Shown here: positions 9,272 through 61,999 of the stretch, piece by piece
How the letters are laid out: each line of letters opens with the position of its first letter
Position numbering within the stretch: position 1 is the stretch's first letter
Assembly (NCBI GenBank): GCA_035529475.1
Contig: DATKWR010000836.1
Span: 1 to 61,999, forward strand
Length of the DNA: 61,999 nucleotides
Reading direction: 5' to 3'
From: Sedimentisphaerales bacterium
GTDB taxonomy: Bacteria; Planctomycetota; Phycisphaerae; Sedimentisphaerales; Anaerobacaceae
The notes under the pieces: model-generated
Told to the model about the DNA's origin: nothing
Databases searched by the model: none
Seen by the model: only the letters and a program-made list of their open reading frames with translations
Translations under genes and position numbers: made by a program

Positions 9272-9460
9272 ATGGCAAAAAGAAGTCTAACGATTCGATG
9301 TTCTGATGAGCAGTGGGAGCGCATTAAGGACGCCAATCAGGATGAACGCTATGGCAAGACGACCGTGACGGTTCGGATTTGTAGGGTTGCGAGTAGGTCA
9401 GCGGAATCAATAGACATTGACTTGCAATGCGGAGAAGACAGCGGTGACGGTCAGCATTAA
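9272..9460 (+). CDS. hypothetical small protein
   Basis: 62 aa with CAAGGAGGAAAT before the ATG. Confidence 0.5.
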   Translation: MAKRSLTIRCSDEQWERIKDANQDERYGKTTVTVRICRVASRSAESIDIDLQCGEDSGDGQH

Positions 9461-9917
9461 GATCGAGGGCCTTGACAAACTGATGGACACCCTGGGCAAC
9501 CTGGAGGGTGCCAAGTACATGCGCGGCGTGCTGGAAGTCGCAGGGGAGCACGTCAGGAGCAAGATAGCGATAGAACCGCCAATTAACCGAAACTATCCAC
9601 TCCCATGGGCAAGTGAGGATCAGCGCAGACAATACATCGCCATGCGGCGCGCAGCGGGTCTTTCACCACGATATGATAGGAATAGCGATAGGTTGAGCGA
9701 ACGCCTCAGCCCGTCCTGGACGACCAAAGTTGCATCTGGCGGATTAAGTGCTACAATAGGGACCAAGGCAAGCTACGCCCGCCTCGTGCAGGACAGGGAC
9801 GTGCAGACCGAGATGCACAAACGCACTGGCTGGGTGACGGCCCAGGACGTGGTGGAGAAGGAATCTGACCGGATAGTGGACATGATAGGCGACGCCATAG
9901 ACAGGGCGATGGCCTGA
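9444..9917 (+). CDS. HK97 gp10-like neck/tail-completion family protein
   Basis: The track ORF starts at TTG 9417. GTG 9444 after GGAGAAG gives VTVSIKIEGLDKL, and ATIGTKASYARLVQ matches the gp10-family pattern. The start is uncertain. Confidence 0.45.
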   Translation: MTVSIKIEGLDKLMDTLGNLEGAKYMRGVLEVAGEHVRSKIAIEPPINRNYPLPWASEDQRRQYIAMRRAAGLSPRYDRNSDRLSERLSPSWTTKVASGGLSATIGTKASYARLVQDRDVQTEMHKRTGWVTAQDVVEKESDRIVDMIGDAIDRAMA

Positions 9918-10131: not shown

Positions 10132-10872
10132 ATGGACGAATTCGACGAGACGGAGAACGAGATTATCGACGACCCGGTCGGGCCCTCCCGGCTGGAATTC
10201 GGGATACACCGGGCCAGCTACAGGGCCGCCGTAATCACCGACGAGAGTGGCAACATCCTGGGCACGCCGGAGAATCCGGTTCCAACGGAAGTGATAGTCG
10301 AGGGCGATGCGGCGGCGGCGGAGAACCCGTTGCCGATCGAAGTCATAGTGAACGACGCCCCGGCGGGCATTCCTAATCCCCTGCCCGTGGAGATCATCAT
10401 AGACGGCGGGCGCGCCGACGATGATAAGCCTGTCACGACAGATGAGATCATCCGCACCAACGACGTGATAACGCTCATCGACGATGTGCGGATAGACGAC
10501 GCCCCGACGAGTTTCATCAGCAAGCCCTTCGATGTGCAGGAATACGCCGGGGCCTGGCTCTACATCTCCGTCGACAGCACGCTCGCGCCCACGCACCTGC
10601 GCATCCTGGTGCAGTTCAGCCATGACTACGACGGGGAGATGGGCGCTGGCGCGGCGATCTGGTCGGACTTCGAGGAGGGTTTCTGGGCTAGTCTTGGCTG
10701 GGAGGACACCGACACGGCGAGCGGGGTTTGGAAAACGTACTATCTGCCCGTCGCGGGGCAGAACTTCTTGCGAGTTCAGGCGGTGGGGACGGGCACGGAC
10801 GCGAACAACTACTTTGACGTGACTGTCCGGATCCGCAAATTCCGTGGTCCTCACGGGGTGGCGCACGCATGA
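10132..10872 (+). CDS. hypothetical head-module protein with NP(V/L)PxE(V/I)I(V/I) repeats
   Basis: ATG 10132 follows GGAGG. The acidic N-terminus has three repeats (NPVPTEVIVEG, NPLPIEVIVND, NPLPVEIIIDG). The C-terminal half is beta-rich. Confidence 0.6.
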   Translation: MDEFDETENEIIDDPVGPSRLEFGIHRASYRAAVITDESGNILGTPENPVPTEVIVEGDAAAAENPLPIEVIVNDAPAGIPNPLPVEIIIDGGRADDDKPVTTDEIIRTNDVITLIDDVRIDDAPTSFISKPFDVQEYAGAWLYISVDSTLAPTHLRILVQFSHDYDGEMGAGAAIWSDFEEGFWASLGWEDTDTASGVWKTYYLPVAGQNFLRVQAVGTGTDANNYFDVTVRIRKFRGPHGVAHA

Positions 10873-11249
10873 CGGCGGGGAGAGTCATCAGGCAGTTTGG
10901 AACTCCAGCGGTTACTGGTATTGGATTGACCTGGGACGGGGCCTTCCTGTGGCACTGCGATAGAGGGACTGCTCAAATCTATAAGATCGATCCATGGACA
11001 GGCATAGTGAAACGGCAATTCGCGAGTCCGGCAGCTACTCCATATGGCCTCGCCTGGGACGGAGCCTTCCTGTGGAACTCTGATGGCACTCCGGTCGACC
11101 AAATCTATAAGATCGATCCATGGACAGGAAGGGTTGTCACGCAGTTCGCCTCTCCCGGGACAGGACCTACTGGGCTGACCTGGGATGGCCGGTGCTTGTG
11201 GGGTTGTGATGTCACCGCCGCTCAAATCTATCAGATTTCCGTGAACTAG
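10869..11249 (+). CDS. three-repeat beta-propeller-blade-like protein
   Basis: 126 aa made of 3 x ~42 aa repeats with the pattern QF.SP....GL(T/A)WDG..LW..D....QIYKIDPWTG. Confidence 0.65.
   Translation: MTAGRVIRQFGTPAVTGIGLTWDGAFLWHCDRGTAQIYKIDPWTGIVKRQFASPAATPYGLAWDGAFLWNSDGTPVDQIYKIDPWTGRVVTQFASPGTGPTGLTWDGRCLWGCDVTAAQIYQISVN
10884..11246 (+). repeat. about 126-bp tandem coding repeat, 3 copies
   Basis: CAAATCTATAAGATCGATCCATGGACAGG occurs at 10973 and again at 11100. Confidence 0.8.
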
Positions 11250-13742: not shown

Positions 13743-14186
13743 ATGAGTTATACAAACTTGCCGACTGAACGAGAGGGACTTCTTGGCGAAATCTGCGCGG
13801 TCGCGGCACCCGCGGGAACCTACCGCACCGCGCCGACCTGGATGTCGATGGAGAACTTCCACCAGGCCAAGGTTACTCTGACCGTTGGCGATATGGCGGC
13901 CACATCCACGCTGGATATGGCTCTTCTGCAGGCGCAGGACGCCAATGGGACTGGCTCAAAGGCGCTCAAGGCGATCACGCAGCTGACCGCAGCCGGGGGC
14001 GATGAGCACGACATAGACTACATCAACCTACGGACCGAAGAGATGGACGTGCAGAATCTCTTTACGCACATCTGCGTAAGGGTGCGTGTTGGAACCGCGG
14101 CCGTCTGCTTCTCCGTGATCGCCGAGGGACGTATCCCGCGCGCGGCACCGGTGGACACATCGCGAGCGACCGAGATAATCGCCTAG
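13743..14186 (+). CDS. putative capsid-associated protein
   Basis: 147 aa immediately after the capsid gene. No recognisable catalytic motif. Confidence 0.4.
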   Translation: MSYTNLPTEREGLLGEICAVAAPAGTYRTAPTWMSMENFHQAKVTLTVGDMAATSTLDMALLQAQDANGTGSKALKAITQLTAAGGDEHDIDYINLRTEEMDVQNLFTHICVRVRVGTAAVCFSVIAEGRIPRAAPVDTSRATEIIA

Positions 14187-14267: not shown

Positions 14268-14909
14268 ATGCCCTTTCTTCAGCTGATTCGGCACCACAGG
14301 TTTCCGGACGAGACCGGGCGTCAGAAGTTGTTCTATCCCGGCGACGTGCTGACCATCAAAAACAAGAAATTGGCCGCGCAGCTCATCAAGGATGGTTTCG
14401 CGATAGACGCGAGCATACAGAGCCAGGACATACCCGACGACGCGGGAATCCTGCTGAGGCGGAAGATCCCCGGCCCGCCCGCGTGGGTGCAGGCGGCGGA
14501 ACTGAAGATGGTGACGGGGAAGTTGTGGAACCTGCCGTTTGCCCATTGTATGATATGGGACCCGGCGATCAAACCGAATAGGCAATTCATCGTGCCGACC
14601 TTCCGGCTGCTCAAGACGAGCGGCTGGGACGTGCTCGCGCCGGTGAGGAGCTACGACAAGCTGCTGAGGGACTTGCCGTTGAGCGATCAGAAGAAGGAAG
14701 CCGAGGAGCTGATCCACGACCTGCGGATTCCGTATTTCCGAACGCGGATGTTCTGGGCGAAACGGAACGAGCGGGTACAGGCACTACTGGACGAGTGGCA
14801 CAAGCGCGTCAAGGCCGGAAGGGACGAGAGGCTGGCCTTCATGGAGGCCGTCTACGTGACCAAGCCCTACATTCTGGCACTGCCCGCGGCCTGGATCGCG
14901 AGCCGATAA
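14268..14909 (+). CDS. divergent GT-A-like protein, first gene of the island
   Basis: 213 aa. RMFWAKRNERVQALLDEWHK aligns with VFWFRRNERTQKLFEVWRK (15032 ORF) and VWAWRRCEATETLLKTFHTEW (17707 ORF). No clear DxD motif. The N-terminal module is shared with the 192 ORF. Confidence 0.4.
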   Translation: MPFLQLIRHHRFPDETGRQKLFYPGDVLTIKNKKLAAQLIKDGFAIDASIQSQDIPDDAGILLRRKIPGPPAWVQAAELKMVTGKLWNLPFAHCMIWDPAIKPNRQFIVPTFRLLKTSGWDVLAPVRSYDKLLRDLPLSDQKKEAEELIHDLRIPYFRTRMFWAKRNERVQALLDEWHKRVKAGRDERLAFMEAVYVTKPYILALPAAWIASR

Positions 14910-14919
14910 GGAGGAAGGG

Positions 14920-15036
14920 TGATTAGTATTCTTGGCTTGCGAGGTCCATGGTATAGTTGGTTGGCTTACGTTGTACTCAGTAGCATCATCAGCACGCTAC
15001 TTCGCAACTATATTGGGAGGCCGCTTGGGTTGTGAA
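14920..15036 (+). CDS. possible 38-aa hydrophobic ORF
   Basis: GTG follows TAAGGAGGAAGG, and there is a GTGA overlap with the 15032 start. The track ORF 14932..15216 in another frame is rejected. Confidence 0.3.
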
Positions 15037-15643
15037 GGGCGTCGTCTACATCGCCTATGGAGAACCTGCGCGGAAAGAGGCCGCCGAATCCATCAAGTCT
15101 CTGAGGCAGCATCACGACTGGCCGGTCGCGGTGATTGGCGAGAAGGTCCTGGACATAGAACCGATCCGCTTCAGGGACAAGGGCGAACCTGGCCGCTGGG
15201 CCAAGGTTCACCTTGACAAACTGTCGCCCTTCGAGCCGACCCTGTACCTGGACGCGGACACGCGCATAAACGGCGACATCTCGTTGGGGTTTGACATACT
15301 CACTGACGGGTGGGACCTGATCATCATACTGAGCAAGATGCAGAACGCGGACTGGTTGTCTTTTTGCAGCGCGGAAGAGCGGGTGGAGACGATGAACGCG
15401 GCGGAGGGAGCTAAGGTCTGCACCGTCGGCGGAGGAGTGTTCTGGTTTCGCAGGAATGAACGAACACAGAAACTCTTCGAGGTCTGGCGCAAGGAATGGA
15501 ATCGCTGGCAGGGCCAGGATCAAGGGGCACTCATAAGGGCCTTGGTGCAATGTCCGGTGAGAATGTGGTTGTTGAGCCGGGAGTTCAACGGCGGGCCGAT
15601 CATAAAACACCGGTTCGGGAAGGCGAAACAAAGGAGGAGATAA
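15032..15643 (+). CDS. GT-A fold (GT8-like) glycosyltransferase
   Basis: 203 aa with a GTG start. It has the DxD motif YLDADT. A paralog lies at 17707. Confidence 0.65.
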   Translation: MKGVVYIAYGEPARKEAAESIKSLRQHHDWPVAVIGEKVLDIEPIRFRDKGEPGRWAKVHLDKLSPFEPTLYLDADTRINGDISLGFDILTDGWDLIIILSKMQNADWLSFCSAEERVETMNAAEGAKVCTVGGGVFWFRRNERTQKLFEVWRKEWNRWQGQDQGALIRALVQCPVRMWLLSREFNGGPIIKHRFGKAKQRRR

Positions 15644-15966
15644 TGGATACACGCACGCACACATTCCTGTTCGATAACTTGGCTGGCAAACGGGCACTGT
15701 TGCGACATCTGGGCGTGCCGGAAGCCGAGATAGACGATGAGCCCCAGATAGGCATTCATAACTATTCATGGGATGATCACGACGGCACATTCGCCTCAAT
15801 TCACTACAAGGGCAGAACGTGGACGGGACTATGCGGCAACGGTTTCGCTATAATTCACGATACGTTCGGTCAGATAGCCTTGTCTTTGCCATCCGGTCAA
15901 ATCTGTAAGGATTGCTGCAAGGGATACTTGGGCTTGCCCCCATATGATGGGGAACGCGTCAAGTGA
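15643..15966 (+). CDS. hypothetical protein within the island
   Basis: ATG 15643 follows AAAGGAGGAG and overlaps the upstream TAA. 107 aa. Confidence 0.6.
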   Translation: MDTRTHTFLFDNLAGKRALLRHLGVPEAEIDDEPQIGIHNYSWDDHDGTFASIHYKGRTWTGLCGNGFAIIHDTFGQIALSLPSGQICKDCCKGYLGLPPYDGERVK

Positions 15967-16826
15967 AAGTCCATCTCGTCGTCTTCGAGTACAAGACTAG
16001 CTGGATACTGGCGCGTCTGGCCTGCCATCTGGCGAAGTACAACGGTTGGGGAATCGGCACGAGGCCGGACCCGCGTGCGCACGTTAACATATTCTTTCCC
16101 TACCTGAAATGGCGATTCTCGAAATGGACGGGGGGCAAAACCGCGGCCTTCTTCACGCACTACGACACGAACGACAAGTACAAACGCAAGCACTGGAATC
16201 ATCTCGCCGCAAACACGGATCTGCGCGTGACCATGGCGAAGCAGTACGCCAGGATGCTCAGGAAACATGGCGTGACCGTGAACGTGACGCCACCGGTCGA
16301 ACTGGACAGATTTCGACCAAAAGGGAAAGTTCAACACGAAAAACCCGTGATAGGAGTCAGCGGCGACGTGTATCGGGGCGGCAGGAAGGGCGAACATCTG
16401 GTCCGGCAACTGGCGCAAGATCACAGCAAGGAATGGAAGTTCGTCGGTTCCGGCAAGATACAGACCGCAAAGGACTGGCCCATCAGGACAAAACATTATC
16501 GCTGGAAGGAAATGCCGGACTACTACCGGATGCTCAACGTGTTCCTATGCACCTCCCTCATCGAGGGGGGACCCGTCACCGTCCTAGAGGCGTTGGCTTG
16601 TGGTAGACCGATAGTCGTGCCTAATGGCGTGGGATTCATTGACGAACTGCCCGACGATGATGGAATTTACCGCTACGAGGCGGGGGATTATGGACAGATG
16701 GTGACAGCCTTGGAGCGGGCGGTGAAGGACAAGACCCCGCTGGAACAACTGCGTGGATATGTCGTGGATAGGACTCCGGAACGCTACGCCAGGGAATGGA
16801 AGGAAGCGCTGGGGCAGATACCATGA
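15963..16826 (+). CDS. GT-B fold (GT4-like) glycosyltransferase, paralog 1
   Basis: 287 aa with a GTGA overlap. It contains CTSLIEGGPVTVLEALACGRPIVVPNGVG, a glycos_transf_1-type motif. Confidence 0.8.
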   Translation: MKVHLVVFEYKTSWILARLACHLAKYNGWGIGTRPDPRAHVNIFFPYLKWRFSKWTGGKTAAFFTHYDTNDKYKRKHWNHLAANTDLRVTMAKQYARMLRKHGVTVNVTPPVELDRFRPKGKVQHEKPVIGVSGDVYRGGRKGEHLVRQLAQDHSKEWKFVGSGKIQTAKDWPIRTKHYRWKEMPDYYRMLNVFLCTSLIEGGPVTVLEALACGRPIVVPNGVGFIDELPDDDGIYRYEAGDYGQMVTALERAVKDKTPLEQLRGYVVDRTPERYAREWKEALGQIP

Positions 16827-17710
16827 AAGTCTGCATCGTCACCCCAAACTATGCCAAGGACAGCAGCGCCATCATAGCGCGGCTGGCCCGTCACCTGGAA
16901 GATGGCAACGGCTGGCGTATTGCCACGAAGCCGAATCCGCGGGCACTTGTGAACGTGTTCATGCCCTACGACCAGTGGCGGTTCTCGAAATGGAATCGCA
17001 CGCCGACGGCGGGATGGTTCACACACAAGGAAATCTGGCCAACAGAGCATGGCGCGAAGCGCAGGCGCTGGGAAGCGGCAAGTCGGGGTTTAGACTTGCG
17101 GGTGACGCCGAGCGCGATGTACGCCAGGGAACTCAGGCTGTGCGGATCGACGGCGCATATCCCGCATCCGGTAGAACTGGATCATTTCACATTCTGGCCT
17201 TTCGAGAAGCACAAGAAGCCCGTCATTGGCCTTTCGGGCAGAATCTATCCAGGCGGTCGCAAGGGCGAGATGCTTGTGGCGCGATTGGCCAAAGAATACG
17301 GTGACCGATGGAAGATCATCGGGTCGGGCAAGGGCTGGCCCGTTCCAACGAAATGGTACGAATGGCCTGAGTTGCCCAGATTCTATCACCGGTTAGATGT
17401 TTTCCTTTGCACCAGTCTGATCGAGGGCGGGCCGGTGACAGTTCTGGAGGCATTAGCTTCTGGCAGGCCGGTAGTCATTCCTTGGGGGGTAGGCGCTCTT
17501 GATGAATTGCCAAACATGCCCGGCATTTATCACTACAAGAGGGGCGACTATGACGAAATGGTGAAAGCCTTGCAGACAGCGATTGAAAACAAGACCCAGA
17601 TTGCTAGTCAAATGACCAGTCTGAGGGCAATCGTCGAAGGATATACACCGGAACGCTGGTGGCGAGGATGGAATGATGCGCTGCACAATCTCATTGGGGG
17701 CATGGCGTGA
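16823..17710 (+). CDS. GT-B fold (GT4-like) glycosyltransferase, paralog 2
   Basis: ATGA overlap. MKVCIVTPNYAKD...CTSLIEGGPVTVLEALASGRPVVIPWGVG is colinear with paralog 1. Confidence 0.8.
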   Translation: MKVCIVTPNYAKDSSAIIARLARHLEDGNGWRIATKPNPRALVNVFMPYDQWRFSKWNRTPTAGWFTHKEIWPTEHGAKRRRWEAASRGLDLRVTPSAMYARELRLCGSTAHIPHPVELDHFTFWPFEKHKKPVIGLSGRIYPGGRKGEMLVARLAKEYGDRWKIIGSGKGWPVPTKWYEWPELPRFYHRLDVFLCTSLIEGGPVTVLEALASGRPVVIPWGVGALDELPNMPGIYHYKRGDYDEMVKALQTAIENKTQIASQMTSLRAIVEGYTPERWWRGWNDALHNLIGGMA

Positions 17711-18522
17711 CCGACTGGACAGGAAAGGCAGGAATCTATCTCGTCGCCTACGGCAGGCACGCGCACGACTGCGCATACCACCTGATAGCGTCGATCCACA
17801 AGTATTCTCCCGGCATCCCGATATGCCTGGTGTGTGAGGGATTCGAGAAGGACTACCGCAAGCCGGCGGATCCGCTGCCCAGGTGGTCGCCGACGCCGGT
17901 GCCAGAGGGATTCAAGAAGCGGTTGCTGGCAGATGACATAGTCATCCCGTCGGCCATGAGGGACAGGAGGGCGCGCTACCAGAAGACGAAGATATGGAGT
18001 CTTGCGCCCGCGGAGTGGGAACTCGTGCTCTACATGGACGTGGACATGCTTGTCAAGACGAAACTCGACGCCTTCTTCAACATACTCAGCGATGGCTGGG
18101 AGATGGTGGTGACACTGAGTCCGCCCGACGCGGCGCTGGTGCACCATGCGCAGAGGAGGAAATACGAGGCTGAGAACCTGTTCACCAACAAGGCCCTGGG
18201 CGGCGACAGGTGGCTCCAGATAGCAGGCGGGGTGTGGGCCTGGCGGCGATGCGAGGCAACCGAAACGCTTCTGAAAACCTTTCACACGGAATGGCGGCGA
18301 TTCAAGCATACTGACCAGCAGGCGATGATGCGGGCGCTTTGGAAATGTCCGGTGAGGATGTGGACGTTCGGCACCGAATGGAACACCTTCGTTCACAAAC
18401 GGGACTACAAAAGAAGCGTGGGGATATACCACTTCGCCACCGCCGCGAGGGCGTGGGTAGTCAAGCACCAGGGGCGGAAACTGTGGCGAGAGATGAGCGC
18501 GCAGTTCCGGGAGAAGGAATGA
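17707..18522 (+). CDS. GT-A fold (GT8-like) glycosyltransferase
   Basis: 271 aa with a GTGA overlap. It has the DxD motif YMDVDM and is colinear with the 15032 ORF. Confidence 0.65.
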   Translation: MTDWTGKAGIYLVAYGRHAHDCAYHLIASIHKYSPGIPICLVCEGFEKDYRKPADPLPRWSPTPVPEGFKKRLLADDIVIPSAMRDRRARYQKTKIWSLAPAEWELVLYMDVDMLVKTKLDAFFNILSDGWEMVVTLSPPDAALVHHAQRRKYEAENLFTNKALGGDRWLQIAGGVWAWRRCEATETLLKTFHTEWRRFKHTDQQAMMRALWKCPVRMWTFGTEWNTFVHKRDYKRSVGIYHFATAARAWVVKHQGRKLWREMSAQFREKE

Positions 18523-18525
18523 GAC

Positions 18526-19062
18526 ATGGACATATTAACTGAGATACGGGATGACGTCCTGGAGGTTTTGGGGGAACTGGAAACGCGCGAGCGCTGGTGG
18601 GGGTCGGCGGCGGTGCCGACCGAAAAGAACGCCATAGTCAAGGGTGTCACCAATCCCTTCCGGGTGGTCAGCGGAAACAACGCCTGGGGCCCGGTCATTC
18701 AGGTCATAGGGTCTCGTGACGATCCGGGGCCAAAGGGAACGAGCACCTATCATCTACACCGGGTGATGGTCGCGGAGCAGAGCACCACGACGGCATGGAT
18801 GCCGAGATTCATATTCGGATACCAGTCGCTGAAGGAGGCCGTGTACGGGCATAGATGGAGCGAGATCATGGTGATTGCCTCAGTAGATAATCCGCACGCG
18901 ACCGCCGGGGCGCCCATCCAGATCAGGATAGGCAACGTTCCGGCGCGGCAATACAAGGTGTGGGCGCAGGGATGGAACGCCACGAATCTCGCGACCCTGG
19001 ACTTCTACATCGGCTGCCATGGGCATGATTCGCCTCACGGGTATCCGAGAGAGAATCTATAG
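18526..19062 (+). CDS. hypothetical protein within the island
   Basis: 178 aa. No motif recognised. Confidence 0.6.
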   Translation: MDILTEIRDDVLEVLGELETRERWWGSAAVPTEKNAIVKGVTNPFRVVSGNNAWGPVIQVIGSRDDPGPKGTSTYHLHRVMVAEQSTTTAWMPRFIFGYQSLKEAVYGHRWSEIMVIASVDNPHATAGAPIQIRIGNVPARQYKVWAQGWNATNLATLDFYIGCHGHDSPHGYPRENL

Positions 19063-20144
19063 TGACCGAGGACAAGAAGAGCCTCTGGGAACGTCTGGGC
19101 CTCGACCCGTGGGATGTCAGGCCCCCGGCGCACACCAAACGTCTGAACCTGGGGGCGGGGAACCGGGTATTCCCGTTGTGGATTAACCACAGCCTGGACA
19201 AGCACCGCCCCGAGATAGACGTGGCCTGGGACTTGAATCAAAGACCCTGGCCGTGGCCGTCTAACACGTTCTCGCGGGTGAACGCCTGGGCCGTGCTAGA
19301 ACATTTGCACCTAACGCTCCTGGAGAGCATGGACGAGATATGGCGGATTCTCCGACCGGGCGGCAAAGTCCATCTCAAGGTGCCATATTACAAGGCGGCG
19401 CGGGCCTATACCGACCCGACCCACATCACGCGCGGCTGGCACCCCAAGGTGTTCCATTTCTTCGATCCGGCCACCAGGCGCGGGCGGGAGTGCGACTACT
19501 ACACGCCGTTCAAATGGCAGATAATCGAGATAAACTGGACGGACAGTACCCAGGTGGCGATCGCCGCGAGCCTGCGCAAGATATGCAGTTTCAAGCAATG
19601 GGAGGAAGCGATGGTTGAGGGGGCCAGGGTCGTAGAACCGAGACGCATAATCTGGATCAACGGCAGGTCGAACGCGGGCAAGAGCACCATGTGTCGGTAT
19701 CTGCAGACGCTATTCCCCAGCATTGTCGTGGTTGACGATCACGACTTCTGGTTTGGCGTCTGGCAGTACACCTACGCCAAACTCAATTTGGAGAAGACGG
19801 CGGAGTTCGGGGTCGACTGGTTCAAGGACGAACGTAGGGAATCGACACACAGGGATTTCGCCATAGAGGTCGCGCTGACTGCAAAGGCATTGGCAAACCA
19901 GGGTCATCGGGTAGTGGTGAGCATGATAGCCTCGCCGCAGAAGCGGCGCGACCGCATCATGGAGATATTGGGTGATCCCTACCGCGTGTACCTGAAGCAC
20001 AAGGAAGGCGAAGAGAAGACACCTATCTTTGATCCGCCCCAAAAGGGCGAATACGACACGGTGATCGACGGGGACAAGCTCAACGCCCTGGGCTGCGCGG
20101 CGCTAATGGCCAAGCGATTGTCGAAGGAGGGACTGCTGACATGA
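19062..20144 (+). CDS. class I SAM methyltransferase fused to a P-loop kinase (APS-kinase/zeta-like)
   Basis: 360 aa. The N-terminal half has LNLGAGN..ILRPGGKVHLKVP. The C-terminal half has INGRSNAGKST and HRVVVSMIASPQKRRDRI, which resemble the P-loop and ISP motif of adenylylsulfate-kinase-type enzymes. Confidence 0.6.
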   Translation: MTEDKKSLWERLGLDPWDVRPPAHTKRLNLGAGNRVFPLWINHSLDKHRPEIDVAWDLNQRPWPWPSNTFSRVNAWAVLEHLHLTLLESMDEIWRILRPGGKVHLKVPYYKAARAYTDPTHITRGWHPKVFHFFDPATRRGRECDYYTPFKWQIIEINWTDSTQVAIAASLRKICSFKQWEEAMVEGARVVEPRRIIWINGRSNAGKSTMCRYLQTLFPSIVVVDDHDFWFGVWQYTYAKLNLEKTAEFGVDWFKDERRESTHRDFAIEVALTAKALANQGHRVVVSMIASPQKRRDRIMEILGDPYRVYLKHKEGEEKTPIFDPPQKGEYDTVIDGDKLNALGCAALMAKRLSKEGLLT

Positions 20145-20347
20145 CGCGAGAACATCCACTATCGCGTGAATCAAAAGACGGCAAGTATATCACGATCTAC
20201 ATCTATCAGGGGGATCAATGGCTGGTGCATTTAGGACATGAGAAGACGGGGAAACCAGCCGGAACCGTGTCGTGGGAAAAGGCCATTGAGATGGGATTAT
20301 TCTATCCAGATGAAAAACCGGAATTACTTGTCAGCTGCCATGAATAG
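20141..20347 (+). CDS. hypothetical protein, paralog family B
   Basis: 68 aa with an ATGA overlap. VSWEKAIEMGLFYPDEKPE is shared with the 6656 ORF. Confidence 0.6.
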   Translation: MTREHPLSRESKDGKYITIYIYQGDQWLVHLGHEKTGKPAGTVSWEKAIEMGLFYPDEKPELLVSCHE

Positions 20348-20362
20348 GGAAGGATTCCTGAC

Positions 20363-22810
20363 GTGAAGACCAAGAATCGCGTGGTATTTCTGGGAGAATT
20401 GCAACACGTCCAGTCCATCGAGGAGAAACAAATGAAGTATAAGGAATTGAGCGTAGAGGCGGATTTGATACAGCAGGAGCCAACAAGACCCGGACACAAG
20501 AACTTCGGCAAGGACTGCTACATCGCCCACAATCCCGAACTGACGGAAGTGCTCAAAGAGGAGTTCGGGCGTGACGGACTGTGCCTCAAGATATTCCATC
20601 CGTTGGCCGCAAGACAGAAGGCCCATCCCGAAGGCTTTAAGTGGGGCCGGACGCTGCTGACGGAAACGGTGAGGGTGCAGAATCACTTCGCCATCCGGGG
20701 ACTCGCCCCAAGGGTCTATGCGGTGGTTCTTCTACATGACCAGGGCGAGGGAGATCGCTTGGCGGAAGTCACCGATTATGCAGTGGGAGATGGCAAGCCG
20801 GACCTGGATAAGGCCAAGAGGATTGCCAAGAAGTATGAGATCGGACTTGCTGGATACGAGGATAAACTGGCCAAGGCCCAGGATTACTTCGATTACGATT
20901 TCAAGTGGGTCGGCAAATGGTTTGTGGACTGGGGGCGGTTCCACTTCACCGATCCCAAGAGCCACGAAAAGCGGCTTGGAAAGAGACTGATGCACCGGCG
21001 GCGGGGTCCCAAAGATAGCCTGGTCAGTTACCAGGCTGTTCCGGAACTCAATGTACCTGGGCAGCGCAACCGCGTATATCGCTTGAATCACATGCGGCTG
21101 GACGAGATCGATTTCCGGGGCAAGACCGTTCTGGACCTCGGGTGCAACACCGGTAGTTACATGCGCGAAGCGTACAGGCGCGGCGCGAAGCGGGTCGTGG
21201 GTGTAGACTTCAAGCATTGCAGCCTGTGGCATGACATCAACAACTGGCTCGGATTCTGGAACTTCGATTTCCTGGAACTAGAACTCCCACAGCAAAAGCA
21301 TCAAATTGCCAAGCTGTCTGGAATTGAGTCCTTCGACGTTGTGTTCGGGTTGGTCATACTGCCCCACGTGAAGGGTGGCTACCAGAAATGGATTGCCGAT
21401 CTCTGCGATGAGGTGATATGGCTGGAAGACTTCTCTGATTCAAAGCTGAAGGCTTTACGACAGGACTTCCAGCGTGTTGAGACGCTAGGATTCCTTCGTG
21501 ACGAAGCCAGGAAGAAGGTCCTGGTCCGATGTTGGAAGACGCCTAGGCCCCCGGCGGAACCGTTGCCAGAATCGGGCGAAGCGCGCAGGACAGCGGCCAT
21601 AGAGCGGGGACGCACGGCACAGGGGCGCGTGAATCTCTATCCCGAAACCATGGGATTCCTGTATGACTTGGCGGAAAAGGCACCGGACGGCATGGCGGTA
21701 GAGGCGGGGGCCATGTGTGGGGCTAGCTTTGTGTGCTGGGCGGCGGCCCGTGAGGGTAGGGGCAAATGCTATGCCGTAGACATCAAGAACCAACCCGATC
21801 TGCGCGCCAACATCGAACACTATGACTACGATGCGAAGGCCATCAGGGGCGTCAGCTGGGAGGCACCATATGTAACAGAGGAATTGCTGGCCTTTGCTTT
21901 CATCGATGCGGACCACACCAGGAATGGAATACCTAAAGATATCGAGGCATTCACAAAGCGTATCAAGCCCGGAGGCATCATCGTCTTTCATGACTATGAA
22001 AGGAAAGACCCCAAGGGGGTGGTCATAGAGTACGTGGACGCCTGGCAGAAAAAGGCACAGTGGATTCCCCTGGGAAAGGTCAACAGTGCCATAGCGTTTC
22101 AGAGGCCGGAAGATACGCCTAGGGAAAAGGCTGTAGAGATGGGCTTGTCGATCAAGGGAACGGGGAGTTTGAGGGCCAACGAACTTCGGTTCCTCTATGA
22201 CTGCGCGATGCAGGCACCACTGGGGCCAGCAATCGAGGCGGGAGTGCTAAACGGTGCCAGTCTAATAGCATGGCTTCCCGCCAGACTCGACAAGGGCGAA
22301 TGCTACGCCGTGGACACGATAGACCGCCCACTCATGAGGGAGAACCTGAAGACGGCAGGTTACGATAAGGATGTTATCTTCATCAAGGGCAATTCGTGGC
22401 TCGCGCCGCTGGAGATGGATGGCGATTTCGCCTTCGTGTTCATTGACGCCGACCACAAGAAAAGCGGAATCCCGAAGGACATAGCAGCGTACACACGCAG
22501 GATGGCCAACGGCGGCATCATTGTCTTTCACGACTATGGCCATAATCCCAAGAAGCGTCCGCGCATAGTAGTGAGGCAGGAAGTAGACAAGTGGCAGGCG
22601 AAAGCCAAGTGGGAGTTCATCAGTAGGGAACATCTGACCATAGCGTTTCGCAAACCAAAGGGGGAAGATGAAACACCAATCGGGAATGAGCGTCGCCCCG
22701 GTAACGGAGTACATGGCGAAGATTCTGCAAAGCCTGATAACGGAGATGAAGGGCAACCGCCAATTCACGTACTTCGAGAATCGGACGGGTCCGCAGATTG
22801 CCCTGGATAA
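20363..22810 (+). CDS. multidomain protein with a protein-kinase-like domain and three SAM methyltransferase domains
   Basis: 815 aa. LCLKIFHP..AEVTDY..FVDWGRF is kinase-like. VLDLGCNTGSY is MTase motif I. Two duplicated Methyltransf_24-like units follow (AVEAGAMCGAS..FIDADH..GGIIVFHDY and AIEAGVLNGAS..FIDADH..GGIIVFHDY). An alternative start at ATG 20432 follows GAGGAG. Confidence 0.7.
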   Translation: MKTKNRVVFLGELQHVQSIEEKQMKYKELSVEADLIQQEPTRPGHKNFGKDCYIAHNPELTEVLKEEFGRDGLCLKIFHPLAARQKAHPEGFKWGRTLLTETVRVQNHFAIRGLAPRVYAVVLLHDQGEGDRLAEVTDYAVGDGKPDLDKAKRIAKKYEIGLAGYEDKLAKAQDYFDYDFKWVGKWFVDWGRFHFTDPKSHEKRLGKRLMHRRRGPKDSLVSYQAVPELNVPGQRNRVYRLNHMRLDEIDFRGKTVLDLGCNTGSYMREAYRRGAKRVVGVDFKHCSLWHDINNWLGFWNFDFLELELPQQKHQIAKLSGIESFDVVFGLVILPHVKGGYQKWIADLCDEVIWLEDFSDSKLKALRQDFQRVETLGFLRDEARKKVLVRCWKTPRPPAEPLPESGEARRTAAIERGRTAQGRVNLYPETMGFLYDLAEKAPDGMAVEAGAMCGASFVCWAAAREGRGKCYAVDIKNQPDLRANIEHYDYDAKAIRGVSWEAPYVTEELLAFAFIDADHTRNGIPKDIEAFTKRIKPGGIIVFHDYERKDPKGVVIEYVDAWQKKAQWIPLGKVNSAIAFQRPEDTPREKAVEMGLSIKGTGSLRANELRFLYDCAMQAPLGPAIEAGVLNGASLIAWLPARLDKGECYAVDTIDRPLMRENLKTAGYDKDVIFIKGNSWLAPLEMDGDFAFVFIDADHKKSGIPKDIAAYTRRMANGGIIVFHDYGHNPKKRPRIVVRQEVDKWQAKAKWEFISREHLTIAFRKPKGEDETPIGNERRPGNGVHGEDSAKPDNGDEGQPPIHVLRESDGSADCPG

Positions 22811-23153
22811 ATGGCTACGCAGTTGGCTCTGGACGGACTATGGGCGGGCCGCCGCCTACGGTCACATTGAACTCTACGAGTCCGACAGGAAACGTCATGT
22901 GTGCCGATTCGGGGTCTGCGTCGGGCCGGACTATCGCGGTCAGGGCTACGGGACGAAGATCGTGGCCAAACTACTAGAGGAGGCGAAGGTGCTTGGTTTG
23001 CACAAAACGAACGCGAGCGTGTATGGCGACAACGCGCCCATGTTGCATATCTATAAGGATACATATGGCTTCACCGAAGAGGGTCGATACGTGGAGGAAG
23101 AGCGTTGGGACGGCGAGAGCCGCGATATGGTGAGCCTGGCGAAATTCCTGTGA
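22668..23153 (+). CDS. GNAT-family N-acetyltransferase
   Basis: 161 aa. VGPDYRGQGYGTKIVAKLLEEA is GNAT motif A. It overlaps the 3' end of the 20363 ORF by 143 nt in another frame. Confidence 0.75.
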   Translation: MKHQSGMSVAPVTEYMAKILQSLITEMKGNRQFTYFENRTGPQIALDKWLRSWLWTDYGRAAAYGHIELYESDRKRHVCRFGVCVGPDYRGQGYGTKIVAKLLEEAKVLGLHKTNASVYGDNAPMLHIYKDTYGFTEEGRYVEEERWDGESRDMVSLAKFL

Positions 23154-24085
23154 ACGTCCACGTGATCTGCACCGCATACGGAAAAAAGGGGCCGGAGCGT
23201 ATCTTGCCCCGCCACGCGCGGTATTTGCATGAGAATTTGGGATGGACCGTGGGGCGGGAACCTGATCCGCAAGCGGATGTGAACTATTTCTTGCCGTTCA
23301 CGAACGGCTGGAAGCATTGGGGACCGTGGGATTTGACTGACACGGCGGCTTTCTTTACACACAAGGAGCCATATGGGGCGAAGCGCAGCTGGTGGGATGA
23401 AGCGAGAGAACACCACGATCTCAGGATATGCAACGCGCCAATGTACTATGATGATTTGGTTCAGCATGGCCCGACTGAACTGGTGCAGCATTGTGTTGAG
23501 GTAAGTCATTTCACGCTGAGTCCGAGGAAGTATGACCCAGAAACGTTGCCGGTTGTTGGCATCAATGGATTCGTCAATCTTGGAGGGCGCAAGGGCGAAC
23601 TCTTAGTGTACCAGCTCAACAAATATGCCGCAACCGGCCATTTCAGAATCAAGGCGTCGGGCCAGGGCTGGCCAATTGAGAGCAAGTGGTACAGATGGGA
23701 AGACTTGCCAAGTCAGTTCTATCATAGGCTTGATCTCCTCCTCTGTACTAGCCTAGTGGACGCGGGTCCCGGTGGACCATTAGAGGCATTGAGTTGCGGG
23801 ATTCCCGTGGTCATACCGTCTGGTGTGGGGATCATGGATGAACTACCGGACACACATGGAATCTATCGGTATCCACGTGGCGACTTCGACGAAATGTGTG
23901 GAACCATACTGCACTGCATCACCGAACTGGGCACACATGATAAACGGGAATTACGGGCCATCACCAAGGACATGACGATCCGGGCGTTCTGCGATAACCA
24001 CAAACGAGTCTTCGAGAGGCATTTTAGGGGTGACAGAGATGTGGCAATACAGGACGGAGATATTCCAGGAGGAGAGGCTGAGTGA
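23150..24085 (+). CDS. GT-B fold (GT4-like) glycosyltransferase, paralog 3
   Basis: The track ORF is trimmed to GTG 23150, which has a GTGA overlap. CTSLVDAGPGGPLEALSCGIPVVIPSGVG is colinear with paralogs 1 and 2. Confidence 0.75.
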   Translation: MNVHVICTAYGKKGPERILPRHARYLHENLGWTVGREPDPQADVNYFLPFTNGWKHWGPWDLTDTAAFFTHKEPYGAKRSWWDEAREHHDLRICNAPMYYDDLVQHGPTELVQHCVEVSHFTLSPRKYDPETLPVVGINGFVNLGGRKGELLVYQLNKYAATGHFRIKASGQGWPIESKWYRWEDLPSQFYHRLDLLLCTSLVDAGPGGPLEALSCGIPVVIPSGVGIMDELPDTHGIYRYPRGDFDEMCGTILHCITELGTHDKRELRAITKDMTIRAFCDNHKRVFERHFRGDRDVAIQDGDIPGGEAE

Positions 24086-24254
24086 CCATAGGAGCAATTG
24101 CGATATGGTGATAAACCGCATCAACGCATTGGGGCGCGAGGGGTGGAGGATGATCGGGCACGAGATCAACTATGCCGACAACCCGCCCGTGTGGTGGTGT
24201 CTATTCGAGAGGGAAGTGTCCAGCGGGACAGTGAGGATGACGGTTCGTGATTAA
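24039..24254 (+). CDS. DUF4177-like small protein
   Basis: MWQYRTEIF..INALGREGWRMIGHE is a paralog of the 4430 ORF. The start is uncertain, either GTG 24030 or ATG 24039. Confidence 0.5.
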   Translation: MWQYRTEIFQEERLSDHRSNCDMVINRINALGREGWRMIGHEINYADNPPVWWCLFEREVSSGTVRMTVRD

Positions 24255-25326
24255 AGAACTGCGACTTTTCGGCGGCATGTTGGGCAAAGTCCACGAAGGC
24301 CAGAACTGCTACATCGCGCACAACGAGAGCCTGGCAAGCGCTTTGCAAACCAGGTACGCACGGCCCAATCTCTGCCTGAAGATATTCCGCAAGATGACCG
24401 AGGACGAATTGCTGGAGCCGGAGCAGTTCAAGTGGGCCGGCAACCGACTGATCGAGGCGACCAAGATACAGAATCTGTTCGCGCTCGCCGGACTCGCGCC
24501 TAGAGTGTATGGACTGGTTCTCCTCAACGGCGAGAGACTGGCCCAGGTGACGGACTATGTCACGGGAGAGGGGACGCCCGACAAGAAGGGGGCCGCCCGC
24601 ATGGCCGGGACGTGGGACATCACGGCATACGAACTGGAAAAGAGCGAACAGGATATAGCGCACTATCTGGCCCGCGACAGCAAATGGGTCGGCGACAAAC
24701 TCGTCGATTTCGGAAGGCTGCGGTTCGCCAACCCGCGCCTCTATAGGGTGTGGGTCAAGCGACATGTCGAATTGTATCACAAGAAACCCAGGGAGGAGCG
24801 CATCGGCTACCAGCCCTGCCCGGAGTTGGGAGTGGGGGGCAAGCGCGACGTCAAGGCCAGGGCCAAGCAGATGAAGATGTCCGAAGTGGATTTCGTGGGC
24901 GCGACTGTCCTGGACATAGGCTGCAACCAGGGCGCCTTCATGAGATTGGCCGACGACATGGGCGCCGCGAGGGTGATCGGCATTGACCACAAGCACCGCG
25001 AAGGGAACTACCTGCTGGCGAACTGGCTGGGCTATTGGAATCTCGATTTCTACCAGTTGGAACTTCCCAGCCAATGGAAGCAGATACGCGAGAAAAGCGG
25101 GATCAGGACGTTCGACATAGCGTTCTGCCTGTCAATCGTGGGACATGCCGGGGGTTACGCTTCGTGGATTCCCCGGCTTTGCGGGGGATTGATGTGGTTC
25201 TCTGGACAGAGCACGGAGAAGCGCGAGAAGTACCAGGCGGAATTAGCGCGGGATTTCAGCACGGTGCAGTGGCTCGGGTACGTGACCGACCACGGCGCGC
25301 ACCCCATGTGGCTCTGTTGGAAGTGA
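24247..25326 (+). CDS. protein-kinase-like domain fused to a SAM methyltransferase
   Basis: 359 aa with a GTG start. LCLKIFRK..AQVTDY..RDSKWVGDKLVDFGRL is kinase-like. VLDIGCNQGAF is MTase motif I. It is colinear with the first ~390 aa of the 20363 ORF. Confidence 0.7.
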   Translation: MIKELRLFGGMLGKVHEGQNCYIAHNESLASALQTRYARPNLCLKIFRKMTEDELLEPEQFKWAGNRLIEATKIQNLFALAGLAPRVYGLVLLNGERLAQVTDYVTGEGTPDKKGAARMAGTWDITAYELEKSEQDIAHYLARDSKWVGDKLVDFGRLRFANPRLYRVWVKRHVELYHKKPREERIGYQPCPELGVGGKRDVKARAKQMKMSEVDFVGATVLDIGCNQGAFMRLADDMGAARVIGIDHKHREGNYLLANWLGYWNLDFYQLELPSQWKQIREKSGIRTFDIAFCLSIVGHAGGYASWIPRLCGGLMWFSGQSTEKREKYQAELARDFSTVQWLGYVTDHGAHPMWLCWK

Positions 25327-25329
25327 GAC

Positions 25330-25941
25330 ATGACATACATCCCGGTTGAGCGGGTGAGGCGGTATCTGTCAACGAACGATCCCGACATAATGAAGAAGGA
25401 CGACCTGCTGCTGGAGGAGGACCTGGATAGGGCGCAGGGCATCATCGAGAACCTGACGGGTCGCACCTTCGAAGGTTATAAGGACACGCATTTCTTCAAT
25501 GCCGATACGGGTAGCGCGAACGAGCACGGCTACGGCGTGAAAGATGATGGGATCACGCTCATGCTCGACGAGGATCTGGTCAAGGCGTTCGCGGTCAAGA
25601 ACGGTGACGGCACGGTTATTGGCGCAAACGACTATGTGTACAAGCCCACCAACCGCAAGCCGAAGTACGCGATTGTCCTGAAGAACGATGTGTGGACCTA
25701 CAGCAGTTCGCCGCTCAATGCCATCAGCGTGCGCGGCTGGTGGGGTTACTGTCTGGGTCAGAACATCCCGTATGACATACAGCAGGCCTGCCTCCGTCTG
25801 ACTGCGTATCTGTACAGGCAAAAGGACGCGCAGGTTTTCGAGACGACGGCATTCCTGGAGGGCGGCGTGCTCACGGTTCCGCAGGGCTTTCCGATTGACG
25901 TGCTCAAAATCTGTCTAAACCGGAGGAGGAACGCGCTGTAA
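25330..25941 (+). CDS. head-tail connector (gp6-like adaptor) protein
   Basis: 203 aa. VERVRRYLST..DDLLLEEDLDRAQGIIENLTGRTF matches the gp6-like connector pattern. It is the first gene after the island. Confidence 0.55.
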   Translation: MTYIPVERVRRYLSTNDPDIMKKDDLLLEEDLDRAQGIIENLTGRTFEGYKDTHFFNADTGSANEHGYGVKDDGITLMLDEDLVKAFAVKNGDGTVIGANDYVYKPTNRKPKYAIVLKNDVWTYSSSPLNAISVRGWWGYCLGQNIPYDIQQACLRLTAYLYRQKDAQVFETTAFLEGGVLTVPQGFPIDVLKICLNRRRNAL

Positions 25942-26367: not shown

Positions 26368-26844
26368 ATGCCTCAGACAGACGGACACATGACCAGCAAA
26401 CACTCGACATTGGAGGTGTCGAGCGACCAGGTATCCGCCGTCGGCAACGTGACCACGTGGACCGACATCAGCGGATCGAGCAATGCGCTCACGCCTTCGG
26501 GCGGGGATCACATGACCGGCTACACACACAGCTTTGGCGAATTCCACGACCCGCTGACCGGCATCGGCAAGGTCGAACCGGCTTCCGTGGTGGCGCGGGC
26601 CATCTATACGGAAGAGGACGAGGAGAGCACCGACCTGTTCCAGGGATTCTATGAGAACGAGACGAGAATCTGGATGCGGTATCGTCCGGCGGGCGCGGGC
26701 GCGGGAAACTGGGAGTACATCTTCCATGGCCACGTCGTGGGACCCTGCATCCCCTCCTCGGACGCGACGACCGCGGACATTCTGCTCGTCGAAGCGACCT
26801 TGTGGGGCGTCTACAAGGGCAGGCTGGGCCAGGGAACGACCTAA
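26368..26844 (+). CDS. putative major tail (tube) protein
   Basis: 158 aa, immediately upstream of the G/GT chaperone pair. Confidence 0.55.
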   Translation: MPQTDGHMTSKHSTLEVSSDQVSAVGNVTTWTDISGSSNALTPSGGDHMTGYTHSFGEFHDPLTGIGKVEPASVVARAIYTEEDEESTDLFQGFYENETRIWMRYRPAGAGAGNWEYIFHGHVVGPCIPSSDATTADILLVEATLWGVYKGRLGQGTT

Positions 26845-38564: not shown

Positions 38565-38846
38565 ATGCTAAACGGCAAACCGAACTGGTCGAACATCCGG
38601 GCTGCGCTGTACATCGTTGTCTTGATCGCGGCCATGGCCACGGGATGGGCAACATTGAGAGCTGATGTATCTGCGAATACCAGAGACATTGAGGAGGGCA
38701 ATGAGGAAAGAAAAGACGTTATCCTGTTACTCACGGAAGTGCAGGTGCAGATAAGGGGATTGGAGGTGGGCCAGGGAAACATGCAAAGTCAACTTGCGAT
38801 TATACAAAGGGAGTTGGGCGATTTGCGGCAGAGACTATCCGAATGA
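38565..38846 (+). CDS. single-TM protein with a coiled coil
   Basis: 93 aa with the TM segment IRAALYIVVLIAAMATGWATL followed by a heptad-like helix. Confidence 0.55.
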   Translation: MLNGKPNWSNIRAALYIVVLIAAMATGWATLRADVSANTRDIEEGNEERKDVILLLTEVQVQIRGLEVGQGNMQSQLAIIQRELGDLRQRLSE

Positions 38847-61694: not shown

Positions 61695-61990
61695 GGACGC
61701 GCACGTACCGCCTGGAATGCGACATCTGCAAAAGCACATTCTCTCGCGCGCCAGTTGCGCCCACGGATTATGGGATTGGCTTGGAGCTACGCAGATTGGC
61801 CAGAATGAAGGGCTGGGTGCGGTGTAAGGCGCATGGCAAGTGGTTTGATTTCTGTCCCAAGGGTACGCGGGAATTGACAAGCGACACTAGGGCCGCGCAT
61901 CGCGAGATGCCCGATCTGGTGGGCAAGGTGCTCGTGTCGCCAGAGGAGGCTAGACGGGAGGCCAGGAAGGAACATGCAAGGAGGAGATGA
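61691..61990 (+). CDS. Cys-containing basic hypothetical protein
   Basis: 99 aa with a GTGA overlap. Its stop lies within the terminal overlap. Confidence 0.55.
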   Translation: MRTRTYRLECDICKSTFSRAPVAPTDYGIGLELRRLARMKGWVRCKAHGKWFDFCPKGTRELTSDTRAAHREMPDLVGKVLVSPEEARREARKEHARRR

Positions 61991-61999
61991 TGGCAGACG
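61988..61999. repeat. 12-nt terminal overlap identical to positions 1-12 (TGATGGCAGACG). The contig closes into a circle of about 61,987 bp.
   Basis: Exact match of the window end to the window start, read directly from the sequence. Confidence 0.8.

Follow-up and report, generated by a model that had tools for sequence, protein, structure and literature searches.

The window analysed here, the whole 61,999-nucleotide stretch of contig DATKWR010000836.1, represents a siphovirus genome of ~61,987 bp with nearly all genes on the + strand; the 12-base TGATGGCAGACG common to both of its ends (positions 1-12 and 61988-61999) suggests that the assembly closes into a circle and that the genome is complete. 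Between the genes for the major capsid protein and the head-tail connector lies an island of genes for glycan-building and glycan-modifying enzymes (14268-25326), which we interpret as a putative virion glycosylation system. The island is bordered upstream by the gene for a head protein of 147 amino acids (aa) at 13743 and downstream by the head-tail adaptor gene at 25330. It comprises 14 open reading frames (ORFs), referred to below by their start positions:

14268..14909, + strand: degenerate paralog of the GT-A glycosyltransferases, 213 aa (family profile against 15032)
15032..15643, + strand: GT-A glycosyltransferase, 203 aa, with YLDADT (Pfam Nucleotid_trans 20.8 bits, cut-off 22)
15643..15966, + strand: Cys-rich ORF of 107 aa (no family match; no tblastn match in related loci)
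15963..16826, + strand: first GT-B/GT4 paralog, 287 aa, with EX7E (Pfam Glyco_trans_1_4 43.2 bits and Glycos_transf_1 39.9 bits, above cut-off)
16823..17710, + strand: second GT-B/GT4 paralog, 295 aa, 52% identical to 15963 (Pfam above cut-off)
17707..18522, + strand: GT-A (GT8-like) glycosyltransferase, 271 aa, with YMDVDM (Pfam Glyco_transf_8 23.8 bits, cut-off 24.3)
18526..19062, + strand: protein of 178 aa (8 homolog clusters among 5.8 billion)
19062..20144, + strand: fusion of an N-terminal class I methyltransferase with a C-terminal P-loop kinase of the CPT/APS-kinase type (Walker A GRSNAGKST)
20141..20347, + strand: ORF of 68 aa (no family match; no tblastn match in related loci)
20363..22810, + strand: four-domain protein of 815 aa (Pfam)
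22668..23153, + strand: GNAT acetyltransferase, 161 aa (Pfam Acetyltransf_1, E = 1.5e-12)
23150..24085, + strand: third GT-B/GT4 paralog, 311 aa, GTG start at 23150, with DX7E (Pfam E = 1e-4, below cut-off)
24030..24254, + strand: ORF of 74 aa, coding status uncertain (sub-threshold BrxA match, E = 0.0094; no tblastn match in related loci)
24247..25326, + strand: fusion of a protein-kinase-like (PK-like) domain (aa 1-~175) with a class I methyltransferase (aa ~195-359) (Pfam FtsJ-like; AlphaFold2 (AF2) model and Foldseek)

The island occupies 11,059 nt of the ~61,987-nt genome (17.8%), and most of its ORF junctions either overlap by 1-4 nt or are spaced by 3-15 nt, as in translationally coupled genes. 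Promoter-like and terminator-like sites are not commoner within the region than expected by chance. A single 10/12 match (14152-14179) was considered as an internal island promoter and rejected, promoter-like sites being overall fewer than chance would give; the island border was likewise dismissed as the site of a terminator or structured RNA, because the sequence folds no better than shuffled sequence.

Five of the island proteins are predicted glycosyltransferases. The three GT-B proteins are 39-52% identical to each other, with 23150 sharing 39-41% identity with the other two (BLASTP). Both 15963 and 16823 score above the Pfam gathering score and contain IEGGPVTVLE, in keeping with family GT4. 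The two GT-A proteins, 15032 and 17707, are 34% identical (BLASTP, E = 4e-23). The former is conserved in relatives, and homologs of the latter in two related loci, L002 and L069, are fusions of GT-B and GT-A domains (569 and 583 aa, respectively); a PDB sequence search with 17707 gave nothing useful. The first ORF of the island, 14268, is a more distant relative of 15032 (27% identity, BLASTP E = 7e-5), and alignment of its 30-sequence family with 15032 gives an hhalign probability of 97.6% and E = 3.6e-12. 14268 itself has no Pfam match and its family has no PDB sequence match. Since the position of the DxD motif is taken by a conserved TLxWxP throughout this family, 14268 is best regarded as a degenerate and probably non-catalytic GT-A relative, which may serve as a substrate-recognition subunit. 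A 14268-like gene opens nearly all islands of the window type.

Methyltransferase domains are found in three multidomain proteins. In 19062, Pfam matches include CPT (E = 1.2e-7), Methyltransf_11 (E = 6.9e-5) and APS_kinase (E = 1.8e-4); a PDB sequence search gave nothing useful for this protein, and the same type of fusion is present in window-type islands long enough to show it. The 815-aa protein encoded by 20363 consists of a PK-like domain (aa ~30-230), an FtsJ/Methyltransf_23-type domain (aa ~234-390) and two tandem Methyltransf_24 domains (aa ~409-582 and 587-765; E = 2.4e-30), the last two being tandem duplicates with 46% mutual identity. The best PDB sequence match of 20363 is 6g7d. 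In a tblastn search of GenBank phages it retrieved only two marginal matches, both from huge uncultured phages, and a single-protein scan of IMG/VR with it returned nothing; its relatives were found by alignment-based scans. The N-terminal half of 20363 is 41% identical over 348 aa to 24247, the PK-like-methyltransferase fusion that is the last gene before the connector wherever this junction could be seen. A longer form, in which Methyltransf_24 follows the PK-like and methyltransferase domains, is present in L079.

The PK-like assignment comes from structure prediction. The AF2 model of residues 1-200 of 24247, built from 74 homologs, has a mean predicted local distance difference test (pLDDT) of 94.4, and among the 50 PDB matches listed by Foldseek all are kinase or pseudokinase chains except one sperm-axoneme entry, the top probability being ~1; they include the 176-residue minimal kinase HopBF1. 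The second PK-like domain, that of 20363, is the 41%-identical paralog of the modelled one. The β3 lysine K45 (LCLK) and the aspartate D154 of the DFG motif (VDFG) are near-invariant in the PK-like family. In distant homologs the catalytic-loop D-x4-N is visible as DMNxxNW, and across the clade to which the window proteins belong the Asn is replaced by Lys or Arg. For the other half of the fusion, the 24247 family profile matched the methyltransferase domains of PRMT, WbdD and MePCE in the PDB, with PRMT-type domains on top. Membership in PRMT was nevertheless rejected on reading the sequence, because the consensus FDIVxxLSxxxHxGGY lacks the double-Glu loop as we know that motif.

All 77 homolog clusters of 24247 are metagenomic. 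A phmmer search of 1.84 billion representative proteins with the PK-like domain returned 113 clusters at E <=0.001, most of them 340-390 aa long and thus as large as the fusion. In a scan of one genome per species for 185,579 bacterial and archaeal species, only the methyltransferase half was matched, and the fusion did not appear in any cellular genome. So far, this fusion is known only from metagenomic, mostly phage-like contigs.

The inventory given by the first-pass annotation, made from the sequence without database searches, is confirmed, and BLASTP bears out each of its proposed paralogies. It had described about 14 co-oriented and coupled ORFs between the capsid and connector genes, making up about 18% of the genome, and 14 were found, at 14268-25326, with borders identified by Pfam and PHROG. 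The same holds for its three GT-B/GT4 paralogs, two of which exceed the Pfam cut-off, its two DxD-containing GT-A paralogs with the degenerate 14268, its five class I methyltransferase domains (one in 19062, three in 20363 and one in 24247, by Pfam), its two PK-like domains (by AF2 and Foldseek for 24247, by identity for 20363), and its one P-loop kinase in 19062 and one GNAT protein in 22668 (both by Pfam). Glycosyltransferase and methyltransferase identities thus hold in profile searches, some of the glycosyltransferases scoring below cut-off. The sequence motifs that it quoted are all present, but the '.CG' of its GT-B motif is wrong for 16823, which reads ASG.

Identity of the capsid protein of the window phage to that of any GenBank phage does not exceed 31-35%, and megablast of the island against 50,697 GenBank phage records gave no match. 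A 14.7-kb Logan contig from SRR8554643 encodes exactly identical island proteins, and a metagenome scan with the capsid domain returned only one 3.3-kb fragment, 99% identical. More distant relatives were collected by scanning IMG/VR with a capsid alignment, which returned 80 capsid relatives. In 27 of the 80 a window-type island lies directly 3' of the capsid gene, a count drawn from relatives with at least ~2.8 kb of sequence downstream of that gene. Altogether, ~30 metagenomic phage contigs share the site, with capsid gene, 147-aa protein gene, island and connector gene in succession. The gene order was read in L002, L069 and L070 and in the IMG/VR contigs L075-L083 and L085. Recurrently, the capsid and 147-aa protein genes are followed by a 14268-like gene, a GT-A gene and a GT-B gene often fused to a second GT-A, and then by the methyltransferase-P-loop kinase, the PK-like-methyltransferase-Methyltransf_24 protein, an optional GT-B, the PK-like-methyltransferase and the connector. 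Since 27 capsid relatives carry the island directly downstream, these comparisons indicate a feature inherited in the lineage and not a one-off acquisition.

Within this common plan the modules vary: islands differ in GT-B copy number, in having one or two Methyltransf_24 domains and in extra PK-like-methyltransferase genes. In L080 such genes span at least 12.3 kb, and the window island, whose set the first-pass annotation had called larger than any known to be described for a phage, is not uniquely large. Other capsid relatives lack the enzymes of the window and have different ones at the same site. L126 (3568-6266) encodes a sulfotransferase, an MptE/Maf-like protein and DUF1647; L124 (7586-14868) a sulfotransferase, a beta-helix protein, a Laminin_G_3 protein and a GT2-Methyltransf_24 fusion; and L154 (2459-9340) TOD1/MUCI70-like and Anp1-like glycosyltransferases, FkbM and Methyltransf_11 methyltransferases, and Lcl_C. 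Because unrelated tailoring enzymes occupy one site in these three loci, the gene content marks the capsid-connector junction of this clade as a hot spot where glycan-tailoring genes vary. We found no description of an exchangeable phage glycan locus of this kind in the literature searched.

Distant PK-like-methyltransferase fusions occur in larger glycan islands on contigs of 46-90 kb, the larger of which are viral-looking; these islands also hold GT2 genes, a radical-SAM enzyme, an aminotransferase, a sulfatase or a deacetylase. Two of the viral-looking contigs, L003 (90 kb) and L004 (83 kb), carry ThyX, LAGLIDADG endonucleases, Cpn10 and Tad6. The glycan island of L003 contains several GT2 genes, a polysaccharide deacetylase and two tandem copies of the PK-like-methyltransferase gene, and that of L004 contains GT2 genes, a radical-SAM/B12 enzyme, a DegT aminotransferase, a sulfatase and a GNAT gene.

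Four island ORFs, namely the GNAT gene and 15643, 20141 and 24030, are unique to the window phage according to tblastn searches of the related loci. The GNAT gene has a strong ribosome-binding site, GGGGGA, upstream and overlaps by 143 nt (22668-22810) the part of 20363 that encodes the low-complexity tail of the 815-aa protein. This tail is missing from shorter homologs, and automatic gene calling on the Logan contig of identical sequence did not report the GNAT gene. The 178-aa product of 18526 is of a different kind. Its homologs are encoded upstream of the capsid gene in L107 (2127-2633) and L111 (1894-2361) and, in the head module of an unrelated phage, L187 (10001-10591), between Laminin_G_3 and Lcl_C proteins; tblastn of related loci found none in the other islands. 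It behaves as a scarce, movable virion accessory gene, and its product is probably not an enzyme but an accessory or decoration protein of the head, moved into the island.

None of the island proteins contains a membrane segment: the top 19-residue hydropathy is <=1.66 and falls within Rossmann-fold strands. In Pfam scans, neither the island nor the larger ORFs elsewhere yielded a lipid-carrier glycosyltransferase, flippase, polymerase or transporter. Since membrane segments and genes for export and for nucleotide-sugar synthesis are all missing, the glycan would be assembled in the cytoplasm, from host nucleotide sugars and on a soluble acceptor. Such an acceptor could in principle be a host or soluble target, that is, a cytoplasmic methylated polysaccharide, a host protein or a small molecule, whose modification aids infection or excludes other phages. 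This would fit the resemblance of the Methyltransf_24 domains to sugar O-methyltransferases of polysaccharide pathways (6g7d being the best PDB match) and the pairing of kinase and methyltransferase known from O-antigen termination by WbdD. However, besides the lack of membrane, lipid-carrier, flippase and export proteins, Pfam scans of the window ORFs revealed neither an integrase, in agreement with the first-pass annotation, nor a lysogeny module, and a fixed site in the head-tail operon of ~30 genomes, with cassette replacement at that site, is hard to explain by a host target. We therefore regard this explanation as quite unlikely.

Placement and coupling within the head-tail operon point instead to virion proteins as the acceptor. 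Judging from gene content and context, the island is probably a cytoplasmic cassette for virion glycosylation, which would be expressed late and build a short, heavily O-methylated oligosaccharide on virion proteins. Differing enzyme sets at one site are the pattern expected of a surface glycan under diversifying selection.

Another conceivable substrate is the phage DNA itself, which could escape host restriction if hypermodified by glycosylation, methylation or phosphorylation. In other phages, DNA hypermodification is described as involving glycosyltransferases, P-loop kinases and methyltransferases, and the distant L003, which carries a PK-like-methyltransferase gene, has ThyX nearby. Yet Pfam detected no thymidylate-synthase-like protein or dCMP/dUMP hydroxymethylase in any window ORF of at least 250 aa, the island is part of the late structural operon and distant from the replication genes (43-57 kb), and five glycosyltransferases together with TylF-type sugar O-methyltransferases suggest an oligosaccharide. 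DNA hypermodification is thus very improbable.

The virion proteins considered as acceptors, chiefly the capsid protein and next the tail tube, are encoded among the following head and tail genes:

5023: terminase, upstream of the portal gene
7076-9244: portal fused to a Mu-F-like domain, 722 aa
11477..13729, + strand: major capsid protein, 750 aa (Pfam Phage_capsid, E = 1.9e-41; HK97-fold domain at aa 449-721)
13743..14186, + strand: 147-aa head-module protein, phrog_28483 (PHROG E = 1.4e-22)
25330..25941, + strand: head-tail adaptor (phrog_442, E = 1.8e-8; the L069 homolog matches Phage_connect_1)
26368..26844, + strand: tail tube, 158 aa, ending ...GQGTT (position directly before the chaperone and tape measure genes)
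26871: tail chaperone, directly 3' of the tail tube gene
27424: tape measure, after the chaperone and followed by the distal tail genes

We assign the 26368 product to the tail tube by its position; AF2 modelled it weakly (pLDDT 58), and the leading Foldseek matches in both libraries are of the tail-tube family (phage 80alpha, monocin MttP and lambda gpV). The capsid protein ends ...SPFVVLDVEAATS, that is, in Ser/Thr, and two terminal Ser/Thr residues are present in just three of the 100 window ORFs: those of the capsid, the tail tube and the tail chaperone. A C-terminal Ser/Thr was found in all of the island-bearing capsids (27/27) and in all full-length tube homologs (11/11, ending QAT, ATT or GTT), and the number of terminal Ser/Thr residues is equal in capsid and tube in the five genomes where both could be read (5/5). 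In cultured island-less relatives the capsids end ...VGA and ...VAA and the tail protein ends ...AVV. Distant island-less capsids, on the other hand, mostly end ...ATRS or ...ATRA, and terminal Ser/Thr as an exclusive marker of island-bearers was discarded, many island-less relatives ending ...ATRS. The Ser/Thr termini of capsid and tail tube are plausible as a candidate acceptor and are not evidence of one. In addition to the HK97-fold domain, the capsid protein has ~440 N-terminal residues that match no family and are kept in relatives with capsids of 690-705 aa; this extension may be a fused scaffold or protease.

The virion might also be glycosylated elsewhere, for example on 13743, the 18526 product, tail fibres or internal Ser/Thr, the termini then being coincidental. 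Consistent with this, terminal Ser is common in island-less relatives, 13743 always borders the island, 18526 looks like a movable head accessory gene that adjoins lectin-like proteins in other phages, and the variable loci of relatives also encode Laminin_G_3, beta-helix and Lcl_C proteins. The 13743 protein had been named in the first-pass annotation, alongside capsid and tube, as a target for glycan analysis. However, it proved to be a generic head-module protein: tblastn located it at 52 places among the related loci, and it has a homolog encoded after the capsid gene of ppBdUSDA122-1, a cultured Bradyrhizobium phage that carries no island, so that it was rejected as an island-specific glycan carrier. 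The 18526 product, for its part, is lacking in most islands, and in the sole experimental precedent the glycans are on the C-termini of capsid and tube. Taken together, we consider another acceptor unlikely, though worth keeping in view.

That precedent comes from mycobacteriophages, a few of which have been reported experimentally to glycosylate their virions, thereby shielding the particles from antibodies. For the cluster O phage Corndog, the work of Freeman et al. (2023), as cited in PMC11600133 and PMC12363180, reportedly shows that the O-methyltransferase gp35 and the glycosyltransferases gp36-38 act on capsid and tail tube, both of which bear their glycans C-terminally. In Corndog, as in the window phage, glycosyltransferases and an O-methyltransferase of the TylF/Methyltransf_24 type are encoded inside the head operon; here, the stretch from capsid to connector gene encodes five glycosyltransferase domains and two of the Methyltransf_24 type. 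The two systems differ in size (four genes and 2.75 kb in Corndog, 14 ORFs and 11 kb in the window), in insertion point (between portal and protease genes in Corndog, between capsid and connector genes in the window) and in glycosyltransferase families (GT2/GT25-like in Corndog, GT4 and GT8-like in the window). Moreover, Corndog gp35-38 include no kinase, PK-like domain or GNAT, whereas the window island has all three. Glycosyltransferases of Che8 (cluster F, gp108-110 region) and Myrna (cluster C) have also been reported to glycosylate capsid proteins. Those of the Che8 type lie near the right end of the genome, outside the structural operon, in temperate phages with an integrase, whereas the window island is inside the operon of a phage without one; no match for 16823 and 24247 was found among phages of the Che8 and Myrna types by tblastn of GenBank phages. 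The first-pass annotation had placed the glycosyltransferases of all these mycobacteriophages in the structural operon, which is correct for the Corndog head operon but not for Che8.

A second point of comparison is WbdD of E. coli O9a, a bifunctional methyltransferase-kinase that phosphorylates and then methylates the end of the O-antigen (PMC3482155). Like WbdD, 24247 joins a class I methyltransferase to a eukaryotic-type protein-kinase fold in one polypeptide, and both occur in a glycan context; the 24247 family profile matches the WbdD methyltransferase domain with E = 7.5e-8, PRMT-type domains scoring better. The order of domains is opposite, however, and the PK-like domain of 24247 is minimal (~175 aa) with a degenerate catalytic loop. 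The coiled-coil ruler, membrane link and ABC-transporter pathway of WbdD have no counterpart found here, 24247 ending right after the methyltransferase. Seroconversion cassettes of temperate phages (Gtr, O-antigen modification) likewise encode glycosyltransferases and acetyltransferases, but they depend on lipid carriers and on integral membrane proteins and as a rule adjoin an integrase, none of which is present in this case. Soluble multidomain proteins with glycosyltransferase and methyltransferase activities, working in the cytoplasm and producing methylated glycans on the major capsid protein, are encoded by chlorovirus PBCV-1 and giant viruses; these are viruses of eukaryotes and their atypical glycans are N-linked. 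By gene content, the functionally closest known system is the mycobacteriophage virion-glycosylation cassette, and membership in it by homology fails. The island differs from those cassettes in its size, its glycosyltransferase families, its kinase-methyltransferase fusions and its place in an exchangeable locus common to many uncultivated phages.

From what is shown, namely which domains are present, that the proteins are soluble and that the locus keeps its position but varies in content, we infer an acceptor, an order of steps and a chemistry as follows. One of the GT-A enzymes, 15032 or 17707, would start the chain on a Ser/Thr hydroxyl using host nucleotide sugars, with the degenerate GT-A 14268 as a possible recognition subunit. 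The three GT-B enzymes and the remaining GT-A would then extend the chain up to ~five sugars, and the two Methyltransf_24 domains of 20363 would O-methylate the sugars. Subsequently, the chain may be capped or decorated by the fusion proteins 19062, through its P-loop kinase, and 20363 and 24247, through their PK-like domains. Methyl-phosphate groups are possible at this step, as with WbdD, and the PK-like domains may perhaps only bind nucleotides. Finally, the GNAT protein, present only in the window phage, may add acetyl groups.

Several observations weigh against this interpretation. Both GT-A proteins and one GT-B (23150) score under the Pfam cut-offs, no nucleotide-sugar synthesis genes were found in the window, and tblastn with the GT-B 16823 against the 50,697 GenBank phage records, or with 24247 against GenBank phages, gave no match. 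Similarity to Corndog gp35 and gp38 is undetectable, BLASTP of 15032 against gp38 giving E = 0.58. Ten proteins encoded downstream of the capsid gene in six loci of distant capsid relatives contain no enzyme domains. Terminal Ser is present in 12 of the 21 relatives without a window-type island, mostly as ...LATRS, and the genomes compared in the C-terminus counts are not phylogenetically independent, which makes the C-terminal argument weak. Finally, in both window copies of the PK-like domain (24247-24846 and 20363-21052) the catalytic-loop Asp-x4-Asn has become ARDSKW or DYDFKW. Given this degenerate loop, phosphotransfer by the two predicted PK-like domains is uncertain, and they could be pseudokinases or have an altered chemistry. 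For the product described in the first-pass annotation as possibly phosphorylated, the P-loop kinase and the PK-like domains thus speak in favour, but the PK-like catalytic loop, devoid of the Asp/Asn pattern, does not. Because of this loop, and because other methyltransferases score better than WbdD, capping by methyl phosphate is an attractive idea drawn by analogy only.

Elsewhere in the genome, an HK97-gp10-like protein (9417-9917) is encoded between the portal and capsid genes, an unusual position. A 126-aa head-module protein (10869-11249) has three ~40-aa repeats of the form QIYKIDPWTG...GL.WDG.FLW and resembles the beta-propeller blades of DUF6923 and Vgb_lyase in family searches. Its counterpart in the nearest relative (L107:3923-4528) is longer and contains additional repeats, and the product could be a small propeller or lectin-like virion protein. 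The remaining genes include RecT, a DnaC-like loader, a DNA methyltransferase and an M23 peptidase, with replication genes at 43-57 kb, and no tRNA genes were found in the window. A calcineurin-like phosphoesterase is encoded just past the tail genes (38843-39682), a SocA/Panacea antitoxin-domain protein at 39815-40276, and a T5orf172/MUG113 (GIY-YIG-like) protein in the replication region (49179-49751).

We tentatively propose, as a bolder reading that we find possible but would not yet favour, that the fixed capsid-connector site in this clade of uncultivated siphoviruses is a hypervariable, O-antigen-like glycan locus specifying interchangeable 'glyco-serotypes', in which the window-type PK-like-methyltransferase fusions cap the glycans, possibly with methyl phosphate, at the C-termini of capsid and tube. 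If virion glycosylation holds true, glycosylation of phage particles would not be confined to actinobacteriophages, and it could draw on a far more elaborate chemistry, in which kinases and an acetyltransferase join five glycosyltransferases and five methyltransferase domains. New enzymology, and possible tools for glyco-engineering of phage particles, would come with the PK-like-methyltransferase family and the degenerate GT-A subunit. An exchangeable locus of this kind in many environmental phages would imply strong selection on the phage surface, possible pressures being adsorption to non-host material, protection from enzymes or grazers, and particle stability.

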